DNA of 64,000 nucleotides from Gammaproteobacteria bacterium (GTDB lineage Bacteria > Pseudomonadota > Gammaproteobacteria > Burkholderiales > Gallionellaceae): the NCBI GenBank assembly GCA_018820925.1, contig JAHJNJ010000017.1, positions 8,064-72,063 of the forward strand. Reading direction: 5' to 3'. This document shows positions 7,975 to 58,658 of this stretch, in pieces (within the stretch, counting starts at the first letter, position 1; each line of letters begins with the position of its first letter). A model generated the notes under the pieces. That model had not been told where the DNA came from and ran no database searches. It worked only from the letters and a program-made list of their open reading frames with translations. The position numbers and the translations under genes are program-made.

Positions 7975-8639
7975 ACCTGCCACCCCAACTTTTCACGAAC
8001 GACTGGTTGTGGCTGGCCGACTTTGTCTTTGCCATCGTTCTGTATCAGGCAGCGGCTCGAGCACCGTGGCGCGCATTATTGAAAAATGGCGCCATGGTGA
8101 ACGCACTGGCAGGGCTGACCATCGGTGTATTTTTCTTCTGGCAAATGAATGTGGGCCTTCGTCCCGGCATCAATTTCCACATCCTGGGCTCCACCCTGTT
8201 CATGCTGATGTTTGGCTCGCACATTGCCACCGTTGCCATTTCGCTGGTCATGCTCGCCACCTGGCTGCGCACGGATATATCCCTGATCACGCTCGGCCTC
8301 AACGGCCTGTTGATGATCGCCCTGCCCGTGAAATTCAGCGAATGGCTGCTGCAGTTCAGCAAACGCAACCTGCCGAAAAATCTTTTCTTGTTCGTGTTGT
8401 GGAACGGCTTTGCCTGCGGTGCGATCTCCATCATACTGAACGTGGCCGCGACTTCCATACTGCTACTGCTGGTGACCCACTACACCTGGCCGCAGATACA
8501 ACACCATTACCTCGTCGCCTCCAGCGTCATTGTGGTCTCTGAAGCCTTTACCACCGGCATGTTGATCACCGCTTTCACGGTATTTCAACCGCAGGCAGTC
8601 ATGCACTTCAGTGACGAAGAATATTTGAACGGGAAGTAA
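7971..8639 (+). CDS. ECF-type S-component-like (CbiM-family) membrane protein
   Basis: GTG start overlapping ygfZ stop (GTGA); about 6 hydrophobic helices; GINFHILGSTL motif. Confidence 0.72.
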   Translation: MNLPPQLFTNDWLWLADFVFAIVLYQAAARAPWRALLKNGAMVNALAGLTIGVFFFWQMNVGLRPGINFHILGSTLFMLMFGSHIATVAISLVMLATWLRTDISLITLGLNGLLMIALPVKFSEWLLQFSKRNLPKNLFLFVLWNGFACGAISIILNVAATSILLLLVTHYTWPQIQHHYLVASSVIVVSEAFTTGMLITAFTVFQPQAVMHFSDEEYLNGK

Positions 8640-51444: not shown

Positions 51445-52173
51445 TTACTCCAGCGTCGCTTCCTCGATAAGCACCTTGTAGGCATAACCCGAACCGAAGT
51501 CCTTGTCCGTACGAACAGTCCCTTTAACAGTCACGACATCCCCAACCCTGGTTTCGCTCTGCGAGGTCACCAGAATATCGTTCGTGTCGTCAGTAGCCGA
51601 TCCAGAACCGTCACGCAGGTGGATCCAGTTCTTGCCCATGATGCTTGGGTTGAACTTCACTACCCTGCCGCGCAGTTGGACAGTTTTGTCCTTGAGATCG
51701 GCGCTGCTGGTGACAATCTCGGAAACCGTGTACGCGTTCGCACCGCTGGCCTTGGCAACCGGCGCTTCGTTAATCGTTTCCAGCTTCTTGCCCGGAACAA
51801 GCGGATAGGCCGTGCCCAGGCCATGCCCGGTCGGCGCCATTGCAGTTGCACTTCCCAATGTGCCGAACAGAATCGTCGGGAAGGTTTTGTTCAGTGCCTT
51901 GCTGTGAAAGTTGTTCATCACCACCCCGTTTTCAACGGTGACGGTGCTGCCTTTCCTGACCTTGGCCGTCATCACCGCAGCCCATAGTTCGCCGTCCCGG
52001 GTTTTGAGACGGAGGAAGGTGTAACTGTCGACATCCTTGACCTCAAGCACCTTGCCCGTCATGGAAACGGCTGGCGCTGTCGGCATGGCGGCGGGGGGCA
52101 TTGTGGCAGGTGTTTCAGATGCAATAACGAGCGTCGAAAAAAATAACATGCAAATTGCCAACAATGCTTTCAT
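51445..52173 (-). CDS. Exported tandem OB-fold protein
   Basis: Signal peptide; GKVLEVKDVDSYTFL; RGRVVKFNPSIMGKNWIHLRDGSG. Confidence 0.65.
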   Translation of the reverse strand: MKALLAICMLFFSTLVIASETPATMPPAAMPTAPAVSMTGKVLEVKDVDSYTFLRLKTRDGELWAAVMTAKVRKGSTVTVENGVVMNNFHSKALNKTFPTILFGTLGSATAMAPTGHGLGTAYPLVPGKKLETINEAPVAKASGANAYTVSEIVTSSADLKDKTVQLRGRVVKFNPSIMGKNWIHLRDGSGSATDDTNDILVTSQSETRVGDVVTVKGTVRTDKDFGSGYAYKVLIEEATLE

Positions 52174-56088: not shown

Positions 56089-56118
56089 TTGACACTACCC
56101 TCGCAATTCCCATACTGT
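56089..56118 (+). promoter_or_regulatory. 18-bp-spacer promoter, copy 3 of 5
   Basis: TTGACA-CTACCCTCGCAATTCCCA-TACTGT-TCGC. Confidence 0.65.
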
Positions 56119-56154: not shown

Positions 56155-57327
56155 ATGGGCATCAATCTCACACGACTCGTTTTACGCAAAGGCAACCAGC
56201 CGACGCGATACACCTGGTTGAAGCCGTTCTGCTTGGTGGCATGCAGCCTGCTCGTTTCCTGCGGCGGCGGCAGCGAAACACCGCCCCCGCCAGCTGCAAC
56301 GCGCACTTTCCTCATGGGCTTCTCGCCGTGGCCGTGGGACGCAACCCAGGAAGCGGTGGACTGGACCTACCAGGCCATCATGACCAACGGCGATATCGTC
56401 TCGCACCACATCGAAGAAGGTGTGCCCTGGCCGGAAGCATTGGCCGGTTCCGCTGTCCCGGCCAGTTATGCCAGCATGCTGGCAGACCGTGTCACCCGCA
56501 CACCCGCCGGGAAAAAAATCCTGCTGCAGATCAACCCCCTCAATCTTGGCCGCGACGGACTGGCCAGTTACCGCACCGATGCCGCCATCAACGCCGCGCT
56601 GACTGTCCCGTGGAACGGCTACGCCCTCAACGCAACGGAGGTGAAGACTGCCTTTGCCAACTATGCGCTGTATATGGTGAACACCATGCACCCGGACTAT
56701 CTTCAAATCGGCGTCGAGGTCAATTTGCTCAAGCGCAATAGTCCGGCGTTGTGGACGCAATATGTCGAGTTGCAATGCTCAACCTATAGCGCAGTCAAAG
56801 CCGTGCATCCGGACCTCCCCGTTTCCGTCTCGCTGTTCTCCGTCCCGTTCTTCCCGGAATGGTCGGGACCGGACAACCTGACCGATCAGCAGAATGCGCT
56901 GGCCGATGTTTCCGCCTGCAGCGACGTGATCGGCTTCTCGGTGCATCCCTTCATGAGCGCCCTGCTCGCCGACAGTTTTCCGGCGGACTATTTCGACCGC
57001 CTGTTCGCCTATACGACAAAACCCATCGCTATCACCGAGAGCAGCTACCCGGCACAGGAATGGAGTTCTGGCAGCTCGACCTGGAACGGCACGCAGGCCA
57101 AACAGGCCGACTTTCTGGACAAGATACTGACTGCCGCCCAAAGCCACCAACTGCAATATGTGATCTGGTTCACCGTGCGCGACTACGACCAGCTCTGGAA
57201 CGGCGCACTGGCACATGACCCGACTGCATTGATCTGGCGCGACACCGGGCTCTACGATGAAAACGGATTGGCGCGCGAAGCCATGACGACCTGGAGTAAC
57301 ACACTGAGCAAGACCTATCTGCCATGA
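56155..57327 (+). CDS. Putative glycoside hydrolase (clan GH-A TIM-barrel) lipoprotein
   Basis: Lipobox LVSC-GGG; IGVEVN (acid/base-like), KPIAITESSYP (nucleophile-like), GLYDENG. Confidence 0.6.
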   Translation: MGINLTRLVLRKGNQPTRYTWLKPFCLVACSLLVSCGGGSETPPPPAATRTFLMGFSPWPWDATQEAVDWTYQAIMTNGDIVSHHIEEGVPWPEALAGSAVPASYASMLADRVTRTPAGKKILLQINPLNLGRDGLASYRTDAAINAALTVPWNGYALNATEVKTAFANYALYMVNTMHPDYLQIGVEVNLLKRNSPALWTQYVELQCSTYSAVKAVHPDLPVSVSLFSVPFFPEWSGPDNLTDQQNALADVSACSDVIGFSVHPFMSALLADSFPADYFDRLFAYTTKPIAITESSYPAQEWSSGSSTWNGTQAKQADFLDKILTAAQSHQLQYVIWFTVRDYDQLWNGALAHDPTALIWRDTGLYDENGLAREAMTTWSNTLSKTYLP

Positions 57328-57388
57328 CAACCCATGGCATGGTTTGTCGTCGATTCAATGAGTCTGACTTTTGCGACGGAGCGACTGA

Positions 57389-57901
57389 ATGAACAAATAC
57401 ATACTGCTGCTGGTGCTGATTTCCGGCATCTTGTCCGGATACCTGATCGGTGACTACCGGAACAAAGACGCGCGCGAAGCGCTGAAAAAGGCGCTCGAAA
57501 CAGGCAAGACGCTGGACACAGAGCGCGAAGCCGCCATCACCCGGCTCAAAGCCGAACTGGACGGCATCACCGACAGGCATCGCCGGGAACTGGAAGCGAT
57601 TCGCAAAAGCAACGCTGCCAAAATCGCCGAATGGCGGCGTGCCAGGGATGGATTGAACGACCAGATCAAACACTCAAGCGCCAGACTCGCCGCATCCGAC
57701 AACCGGCTGAAAACACTTGCCGCCCGGCGCGATGCCGCATCCGGTGCCGAGAGGACAAAACTTGATCTGGAGATGGCGAACCTGCGCAAGGAGCGCGATG
57801 ATTTGCAGCGGGAAATCGAAGGCAACGCATGCCTGCAAACACGGGTTCCGCTCAGTGTGTCTGAAGCACTGAATGAAACACACATCGCGGGGAGCAAATA
57901 A
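57389..57901 (+). CDS. Rz-like inner-membrane spanin candidate
   Basis: Single N-terminal TM, long predicted coiled coil, C-terminal C-x4-VP-x-SV...LN. Confidence 0.6.
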   Translation: MNKYILLLVLISGILSGYLIGDYRNKDAREALKKALETGKTLDTEREAAITRLKAELDGITDRHRRELEAIRKSNAAKIAEWRRARDGLNDQIKHSSARLAASDNRLKTLAARRDAASGAERTKLDLEMANLRKERDDLQREIEGNACLQTRVPLSVSEALNETHIAGSK

Positions 57902-58218
57902 TGAAATCACCTTGCTTGAAACTCCTGCCGATCTTGCTGGGCAGTCTGTTCATCGCGGGATGCAACACACTTCCCGTTGCCTCGCATGCGATCGGTTGCG
58001 ATGTAAGCGCAGAACTGCTCTCCGGCAAATGCGCGGCGCCCAGGCCGGTCTCCAACGGCACGACTTACGCGGCGCTGGTCGACACCATGCAGGCAGATCG
58101 CAAGGCATTACAGGAATGCGGCAATATGACAGACGCATTGCGCGATGCTCTCCTGCGCTGCAATCAGGCGACCGGCGAGTACAACAGCAAGATCGATGCA
58201 CTTAACCGCGCGCGCTAG
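57901..58218 (+). CDS. Rz1-like outer-membrane lipoprotein (o-spanin) candidate
   Basis: Lipobox IAGC; CAAPRPV...TTYAAL...ALQECG; TAATG overlap with upstream gene. Confidence 0.6.
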   Translation: MKSPCLKLLPILLGSLFIAGCNTLPVASHAIGCDVSAELLSGKCAAPRPVSNGTTYAALVDTMQADRKALQECGNMTDALRDALLRCNQATGEYNSKIDALNRAR

Positions 58219-58382: not shown

Positions 58383-58658
58383 TCAGTAAGCGGCAGGCGG
58401 TTCGGAAGCAGAAGGCGGTTCCGGAGTTGAGTCTTCAGCCACGGCCGACGCTACTGAAGGTTCACCGGCATTCGTATCTTCGTCAGCGGGCGATGCTTCC
58501 TGTTGCACGGCGGGGGTCTTGATGGCAGCCTGCTTCTTATCTGCGGCAGCCTTGCCCAGATTGACAATGGTCCCGGACATCATCGCCTTGAATGCAAAAA
58601 TGGCAATGATGCTCACCGCAACAACGATCAGCAGGCGTTTCAGGGCGCGTTCATCCAT
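58383..58658 (-). CDS. Small hypothetical membrane protein with acidic Ala/Pro-rich tail
   Basis: N-terminal TM LLIVVAVSIIAIFAF; low-complexity C-terminus. Confidence 0.55.
   Translation of the reverse strand: MDERALKRLLIVVAVSIIAIFAFKAMMSGTIVNLGKAAADKKQAAIKTPAVQQEASPADEDTNAGEPSVASAVAEDSTPEPPSASEPPAAY

Follow-up and report, generated by a model that had tools for sequence, protein, structure and literature searches.

Why does a stretch of ordinary bacterial chromosome encode two small envelope proteins that are laid out like the spanins of a phage, with no phage genes around them? The question is raised by positions 57389 to 58218 of a DNA stretch of 64,000 nucleotides (positions 8,064 to 72,063 of contig JAHJNJ010000017.1, assembly GCA_018820925.1; hereafter the window) from a gammaproteobacterium of the Gallionellaceae. 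The iron-oxidising host was placed in Sideroxydans/Sideroxyarcus by source names; all named homologues of the pair come from the same group, including the carrier Sideroxyarcus emersonii MIZ01 (gene 2 is MIZ01_1067), which has a complete genome on record under the strain name. Gene 1 (57389..57901, + strand) encodes a protein of 170 amino acids that resembles inner-membrane spanins (i-spanins), as judged from the list of open reading frames (ORFs), alignments, an AlphaFold2 model and weak matches to Rz-like spanin families of PHROG. Gene 2 (57901..58218, + strand) encodes a lipoprotein of 105 amino acids that resembles outer-membrane spanins (o-spanins) of the LysC type, as judged from Pfam PF23793, phrog_456, hhalign and a pattern of five cysteines. 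The probable answer, in our view, is that the two genes encode a LysB/LysC-type two-component spanin of phage origin, that they have become unlinked from holin, endolysin and phage genes and that they are kept as a translationally coupled chromosomal unit in a subset of Sideroxydans/Sideroxyarcus. Its sequence, architecture, family links, orphan context, conservation and selection are established below; complex formation, fusion activity and a role for the host are what we infer from them.

Arrangement and architecture of the pair

Direct reading finds the two ORFs exactly where the first-pass annotation, a description made from the sequence alone, had placed them, and it also confirms the overlap of a single base: the stop codon of gene 1 and the start codon of gene 2 meet in TAATG, within AAATAATGAAA. 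Both genes are preceded by Shine-Dalgarno-like sequences (GGAG/GGGGAG). As a checklist of spanin features we used the traits of two-component spanins surveyed in Kongari et al. 2018 (PMC6139136). With the i-spanin gene first and an overlap of 1 nt, the arrangement corresponds to the 'separated' class; an overlap of 8 bp was still classed as separated in that survey (PMC6139136). The start/stop overlap is found in seven of eight species, as TAATG, ATGA or ATGATGA (ATGA/ATGATGA in six others), and one species has a gap of 2 nt. In G+C content (0.56-0.60) the pair does not differ from its flanks.

By reading, gene 1 has the topology of a protein with a single N-terminal membrane helix: residues 4-21 (YILLLVLISGILSGYLIG; 57398..57451, + strand; also supported by alignments) are hydrophobic and no later hydrophobic stretch follows. 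Two glycines at the end of this helix, G17 and G21, do not vary anywhere in the wide family described below. The AlphaFold2 model, built with 20 homologues, has a mean predicted local distance difference test score (pLDDT) of 78 and consists of helices at residues 2-116, 120-151 and 155-163. Its break at residues 117-119 (A-S-G; 57737..57745, + strand) is a predicted hinge between two periplasmic helices, and it coincides with A117, which is nearly invariant in the wide-family alignment. The tail of the protein, EIEGNACLQTRVPLSVSEALN, holds the sole cysteine of gene 1, Cys148; none of 20 close and 20 distant relatives differs at this position. The residue is part of a C-terminal signature, G145-x2-C148-L-x3-V-P154 (57821..57850, + strand), of which G145 and P154 are nearly invariant too (alignments A2, A7 and A8). 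Of the layout first given for gene 1, the single N-terminal transmembrane segment and the cysteine-containing C-terminal tail are recovered by reading, AlphaFold2 and the alignments, and the long coiled coil as predicted long helices.

Gene 2 starts with a lipoprotein signal peptide and the lipobox FIAG/C (57901..57963, + strand; direct reading and alignment), in which the cysteine is Cys21 (codon 57961-57963). Retention of a lipoprotein in the inner membrane by Lol avoidance requires Asp at position +2. In gene 2 this residue is Asn, and in the aligned close homologues it is Asn, Lys or Gln, never Asp; from the Asn at +2, gene 2 is predicted to be sorted to the outer membrane. Cys21 and four further cysteines (Cys33, Cys44, Cys73 and Cys87) are invariant in the alignment of close homologues, so that gene 1 contributes one invariant periplasmic cysteine and gene 2 four. 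O-spanins with up to four cysteines are within the published range (35 of 526 systems; PMC6139136). The C-terminal 49 residues before the last one (residues 56-104; 58066..58212, + strand) are predicted with a pLDDT of about 90 to form a helix that carries Cys73 and Cys87. The initial description of gene 2 as a Cys/Pro-containing lipoprotein is correct for the lipoprotein and for the cysteines; in the sense of a proline-rich protein it does not hold, with three prolines among the 85 residues of the mature part.

Relatives in lysis cassettes

The sole Pfam match of gene 2 is PF23793, 'Rz1-like lysis system protein LysC' (E 2.8e-5, 24.4 bits), its top PHROG is phrog_456, 'Rz-like spanin' (E 2e-4), and these two are the only families that it matches at E <= 1e-3. 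Its orthologues in the genus score between 19.7 and 27.3 bits against the LysC profile, one alone (G022, 27.3 bits) being above the Pfam cut-off, and a precomputed PF23793 match is on record for 23 of 84 database homologues. When gene 2 was aligned by hhalign with LysC of prophages of the genus, the match had an E-value of 1.8e-4 and a probability of 49%. For gene 1, the four top PHROG matches are weak (E 4e-4 to 0.06) and all of them are 'Rz-like spanin' families (1152, 1327, 89 and 739). Among the homologues of the pair, one has a precomputed match to Pfam PF27974.

A search of 1.84 billion representative proteins with a gene 1 profile returned 89 clusters, nearly all of them 162-177 amino acids in length and aligned from end to end, which share G17, G21, A117 and G145-x2-C148-x5-P154. 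Several of these distant relatives have an Rz-like spanin PHROG as their top match: phrog_2466 (6e-6), phrog_312 (1.9e-5), phrog_739 (2.6e-5) and phrog_214. A profile search of a 5.8-billion-protein set with the gene 1 alignment A8 was swamped by coiled-coil words and gave only 6 proteins, tblastn with both proteins against 50,697 phage records gave chance matches only, and pattern scans of IMG/VR with alignments A1 and A2 found no relative.

The genomic context of distant gene 1 relatives was readable for two, on L042 and L044. On L042 (7945-9210), a gene for a holin-like membrane protein of 74 amino acids is followed by an i-spanin of the gene 1 family and, 183 nt further on, by an LysC-type o-spanin, a lipoprotein that matches phrog_456 at 1.6e-5. 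This 22-kb metagenome contig is phage-like: among its genes are those for endonuclease VII, for RNA repair by Hen1/Pnkp and for a ribonucleotide reductase with an intein, and the phages that it matches best are jumbo phages. No endolysin was recognised in the stretch read. On L044, the i-spanin gene overlaps a gene for an LysC-like lipoprotein, and genes for a membrane protein of 291 amino acids and for an amidase endolysin (phrog_833, E 5e-30) follow.

Further LysC-type o-spanins came up when the genomes of the genus were scanned with the LysC profile: three genomes without the orphan pair have lysis cassettes of Mu-like prophages (L025 437-1767, L024 297-1412 and L026 4-520). These cassettes consist of an endolysin of the amidase or transglycosylase type, a holin-like gene, an LysB-type i-spanin and an overlapped LysC-type o-spanin, and they continue with a TraR-type zinc finger and packaging genes. 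An alignment of the orphan o-spanin with the Sideroxyarcus copy, those of L042 and L044, that of a distant genome of the class and LysC from the three prophages shows no variation at any of the five cysteines, in orphan and lysis-cassette copies alike. We conclude from these sequence comparisons that the pair appears to belong to a genuine phage spanin lineage, in which an LysC-type o-spanin is combined with a cognate, uncatalogued i-spanin family. The spanin layout seen at first pass has thus been joined by matches to Pfam LysC, phrog_456 and (for gene 1) the Rz-like PHROGs, by the five-cysteine pattern and by relatives in phage-like and endolysin contexts; comparison with Rz/Rz1 and LysB/LysC profiles, which the first-pass annotation had named as the check, gave gene 2 a match to LysC that is below the Pfam cut-off and gave gene 1 no significant match to Rz or LysB.

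Among characterised systems, the P2 LysB/LysC-type spanins (PF23793, TIGR03495) are similar in the length of the o-spanin and its LysC profile match, and in an i-spanin that consists of a membrane helix and a helical periplasmic domain; LysC of the Mu-like cassettes of the genus shares with gene 2 the lipidated cysteine and the four periplasmic ones. The orphan pair differs from the LysB/LysC type in several ways: it is separated (1-nt overlap), whereas LysB/LysC genes are overlapped, gene 1 is not detectably related to LysB, gene 2 has an additional C-terminal helical extension beyond the last cysteine, and there is no surrounding holin, endolysin or phage. With lambda Rz/Rz1 the pair has in common a type II inner-membrane protein with two helical segments, a hinge and a C-proximal cysteine, and an outer-membrane lipoprotein as partner, but there is no sequence similarity. 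Lambda Rz1 is moreover embedded in Rz and has 40 proline-rich mature residues with no helix, while gene 2 is a separate gene with 85 mature residues, three prolines and half of its length in a helix. Compared by features, T4 PseT.3/PseT.2 also has separated genes and a larger o-spanin with a predicted C-terminal helix and cysteines that are required for function (PMC6139136); the T4 i-spanin has no cysteine and its o-spanin two, unlike the orphan pair with one and four.

Orphan context, distribution and selection

No lysis or phage gene was found within about 13 kb upstream and about 8 kb downstream of the pair, in agreement with the orphan status and the ordinary chromosomal neighbours reported at first pass. 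The upstream region encodes a papain-like protease, a PLD-like protein, a periplasmic OB-fold protein, a P-type ATPase (assigned by sequence motifs in the ORF translation), an Na/Ca exchanger and a lipoprotein; downstream are genes for a membrane protein of 91 amino acids, a GGDEF cyclase, an ABC-F ATPase and a rhodanese. Location in a phage or prophage near a lysis cassette is a spanin trait that the orphan pair lacks and that its distant relatives have. The genome of the window has no second copy of gene 1 or gene 2 and no homologue of the genes of the Mu-like cassettes beyond AmpD and a transglycosylase-like match. A candidate second locus on contig C34 was rejected: its weak matches are ThiS and AmpD. 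Among the pair-bearing genomes of the genus sample, none has a GH24 lysozyme and none has a convincing amidase of the phrog_833 type, with one weak match in G064.

Both genes are adjacent and of full length in 8 of the first 25 genomes of the genus, that of the window included. A larger sample of 61 genomes has gene 1 in 16 (10 of the 30 high-quality ones), and such a recurrence of the adjacent, intact pair is more than chance; by the ABC-F marker, these carriers include both close and remote members of the genus. Sixteen other families of the order lack the pair, and a class-wide sample of 400 genomes contained one distant copy only, in an AT-rich islet with no lysis genes nearby. This distant copy (L041 1952-2811, - strand) belongs to another family of the class, encodes overlapping proteins of 189 and 97 amino acids, lies beside rho and adjoins a gene for a membrane protein of 170 amino acids.

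The site of the pair is loosely conserved: in seven carriers the OB-fold gene adjoins the pair or is at most 8 kb away and divergently transcribed, and in three the rhodanese gene is downstream. In two non-carriers, the OB-fold gene stands beside other genes and no pair-like ORF of at least 100 amino acids is present at the site. The OB-fold protein of the window (51445-52173, - strand) is periplasmic, has about 240 amino acids and consists of two OB-fold-like halves; across species, no gene accompanies the pair more consistently than its own, which is often transcribed divergently from the pair.

Both genes are of full length in all eight sequenced pairs, none of the 16 carriers has an internal stop in gene 1, and the about 90 metagenomic variants of each gene are of nearly equal length. 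Pairwise Nei-Gojobori comparisons between the eight species put the ratio of non-synonymous to synonymous substitution rates (dN/dS) between 0.20 and 0.53 in gene 1 and between 0.12 and 0.47 in gene 2; dS itself, 0.55-2.5, is near saturation. The amino-acid identity of the pair is 56-77%, versus 80-92% for the ABC-F gene: the pair evolves faster than a housekeeping gene. Because the genes are intact, the overlap is kept and dN/dS is 0.12-0.53 at near-saturated dS, a decaying or neutral relic is largely refuted; the pair is intact and under purifying selection. Absence or decay in relatives, together with dN/dS, had been proposed as a check at first pass: there is no decaying copy, and the pair is of full length in its carriers though missing from 45 of 61 genomes. 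The choice then left between a domesticated module and a prophage relic is now in favour of domestication; inertness is contradicted by intact genes, by a dN/dS of 0.12-0.53 and by the kept coupling.

The only good promoter-like site for the pair in the genome of the window is TTGACA-N16/18-TACTGT (56089..56116, + strand; 10 of 12 consensus matches). It is positioned upstream of the lipoprotein gene that precedes the pair and is the probable start of a transcript that would cover gene 1 and gene 2 too. The extended form of this motif, ATTGACAC-(C-rich spacer)-CCCTAnAGTTCGC, is present at positions 56089, 47610, 48404, 62629 and 63393 of the window, before unrelated genes for exported or envelope proteins. 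Two carriers without the upstream lipoprotein gene (G004 and G005) have a similar site, TTGACA-N17/18-TAnAGT, directly before gene 1; upstream of gene 1, the motif is placed at about 2905-2935 of L019 and on L008 (- strand). At its stop codon the upstream gene has a weak hairpin (57320..57339, + strand), in the spacer of 61 nt before gene 1; it is of doubtful significance, as terminator-like sites are no commoner in the region than in shuffled sequences.

The upstream lipoprotein itself (56155..57327, + strand; 390 amino acids) has no Pfam family and a weak match to the structure of a GH53 endo-beta-1,4-galactanase (7osk, E 6e-4). It is found in only three carriers of the genus, always directly upstream of the pair. 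As a hidden endolysin partner it was rejected on the lack of a Pfam match, the weak galactanase similarity and its restriction to three carriers; because of this restriction it is not regarded as a partner of the pair at all. On the other side, convergent with gene 2, the 91-amino-acid protein (58383-58658, - strand) has one membrane helix, an acidic, proline-rich tail and no family match; it is kept beside the pair in at least G003. In G009 (L020 10254-13821), two paralogous genes directly downstream of the pair look by eye like outer-membrane phospholipase A, and the upstream neighbour of the pair is a transglutaminase-core protein, as it is on L043.

Possible functions and rival explanations

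The membrane-fusion mechanism that we assume for the pair is reportedly that of lambda Rz/Rz1, as described by Berry and co-workers in J Bacteriol in 2012. The spanin survey (PMC6139136) is also a basis for it, and the placement of the two proteins and their C-terminal binding are drawn by analogy with characterised spanins, from that survey and from established knowledge. Gene 1 would be anchored in the inner membrane, its helical domain extending into the periplasm, and would probably dimerise, perhaps via Cys148. Gene 2 would be lipidated at Cys21 and sorted to the outer membrane, with its four remaining cysteines in disulfides. The C-terminal parts of both proteins would then bind each other, resulting in a complex that crosses the periplasm through the murein mesh; in the models, predicted helices of about 14, 5 and 7 nm add up to about 26 nm, enough to span the periplasm. 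Because hinge, helices and cysteines are conserved exactly as in the lysis-cassette relatives, a fusion-competent design seems to be retained: purifying selection acts on the hinge, on both helices and on all cysteines, and spanin activity, meaning collapse of the complex and fusion of inner and outer membrane once murein is locally removed, is probably kept. With an unlinked muralytic activity, the host would have in the pair a latent device for opening the outer membrane or for vesiculation. That the host uses the pair is probable because the pair is kept intact by selection in a quarter of the genus.

Several observations weigh against this reading. One is the profile evidence for gene 1: it has no match to the curated Rz model PF03245 at E <= 10, its match to the curated LysB model TIGR03495 is not significant (E 0.11, 12.8 bits, cut-off 92.75), and hhalign against LysB of the prophages of the genus gave a probability of 1% and no alignment. 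Its PHROG matches fall mainly in the transmembrane segment and the start of the coiled coil, a region in which composition alone may produce misleading matches. A Foldseek search with the modelled gene 1 protein found generic helices only, none of them significant, and sequence and fold searches of the PDB found generic coiled coils only, with no significant match. For gene 2, the LysC score of 24.4 bits is below the Pfam cut-off of 27 bits, and the annotated o-spanins among the top Foldseek matches are not significant. No partner muralytic enzyme was found for the pair. A search for expression data found only DNA runs that contain the region, the genome being a metagenome bin. Three quarters of the genus, complete genomes of close relatives among them, also lack the pair. 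Because several complete close relatives do without it, the pair is a dispensable, accessory gene pair; and because gene 1 has no significant match to the Rz or LysB models or to prophage LysB, it is filed as a member of a separate, putative i-spanin family that is uncatalogued in any library.

The main alternative to a fusion-competent spanin is a static envelope tether of spanin origin, which would link inner and outer membrane for spacing, stability or the positioning of machinery and would no longer fuse them. We consider this possible, with a clear preference for retained fusion activity. A tether is consistent with the failure to find a holin or endolysin partner in the pair-bearing genomes, with a sigma-70-like promoter of the pair's own that is of a type also found before genes for exported and envelope proteins, with the divergent linkage to the periplasmic OB-fold gene in several species, and with summed helix lengths (about 14 + 5 + 7 nm) that fit the width of the periplasm. 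It would, however, not need a hinge, a C-terminal cysteine motif and four o-spanin cysteines exactly as they are in the lysis-cassette relatives, and dispensability in most of the genus counts against it too.

A second alternative, which we rate as improbable, is that the pair is a lysis component in trans for an unlinked prophage, tailocin, gene-transfer agent or autolysin that has no spanin of its own. Lysis genes of domesticated phage-like elements may lie apart from the structural genes, and an unlinked muralytic enzyme would suffice, since spanins act only after murein degradation; the pair-bearing genomes also tend to be the larger ones of the genus. However, in searches short of a full prophage or tailocin census of the genome, the carriers have neither a GH24 lysozyme nor a convincing phrog_833-type amidase, there is no Mu-like lysis cassette in the genome of the window, and the Mu-like prophages of the genus come with their own overlapped LysB/LysC.

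Less probable still is an inert relic of an ancient prophage, kept by chance and in neutral decay. The patchy distribution (16 of 61 genomes), the complete genomes of close relatives with neither the pair nor a remnant at the site and an evolution faster than that of housekeeping genes (56-77% identity versus 80-92% for ABC-F) would all be expected of a relic. They are outweighed by full length in every carrier with no stop despite a dS of 0.55-2.5, by dN/dS of 0.12-0.53, by the conservation of start/stop overlap, ribosome-binding sites, lipobox and all cysteines, by about 90 metagenomic variants per gene of the same length and by a G+C content that is fully ameliorated; intact length, dN/dS and the survey of 16 carriers largely refute the idea. 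A non-spanin origin, with an unrelated bacterial bitopic coiled-coil protein and a lipoprotein that merely resemble spanins, is unlikely and has hardly any weight for us: gene 1 indeed lacks a significant match to curated Rz or LysB models, coiled coils draw spurious profile and fold matches, and BLAST and pattern searches gave no phage relative, but the same two-gene family is found beside a holin-like gene on a phage-like contig and beside an endolysin on another, LysC of Mu-like prophage cassettes has exactly the same cysteine pattern as the o-spanin, and LysC and phrog_456 are the sole gene 2 matches at E <= 1e-3.

A spanin lineage retained outside any phage is thus the reading that we favour, and it provides markers for a new i-spanin family: the GY-x-x-G end of the membrane helix, the G-x2-C-L-x3-V-P tail and an LysC-type o-spanin as partner, which should help the annotation of lysis cassettes. 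To our knowledge, spanins, which breach the outer membrane when a phage lyses its host, have no known role beyond this final stage of lysis, and our literature search found no paper on orphan or domesticated stand-alone spanins. The only reported case of host use that we found, and the closest precedent, is the DLP12 lysis operon of Escherichia coli, which is reported to modulate vesicle production (PMC7918800). As in the orphan pair, phage spanin genes are kept in a bacterial chromosome and have a proposed role in the host envelope (PMC7918800). Unlike the orphan pair, DLP12 is a whole holin-endolysin-spanin operon in a recognisable defective prophage of one species, whereas here the spanin pair is alone, with no prophage remnant, in many species.

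A spanin pair that is by itself under purifying selection across many species implies a membrane-fusion machine that is useful to the cell on its own. Tentatively, and as a possibility that we rate well below that of the retained spanin as such, a phage spanin may here have turned into a stand-alone cellular device that serves no phage: it could fuse membranes for vesicle release or programmed lysis in the biofilms of these iron oxidisers, or act as a decoy, joining the LysB/LysC-type spanins of phages that infect the cell and thereby preventing phage release. If true, such a host device or phage-blocking decoy would be the first case of a spanin dedicated to a host function.

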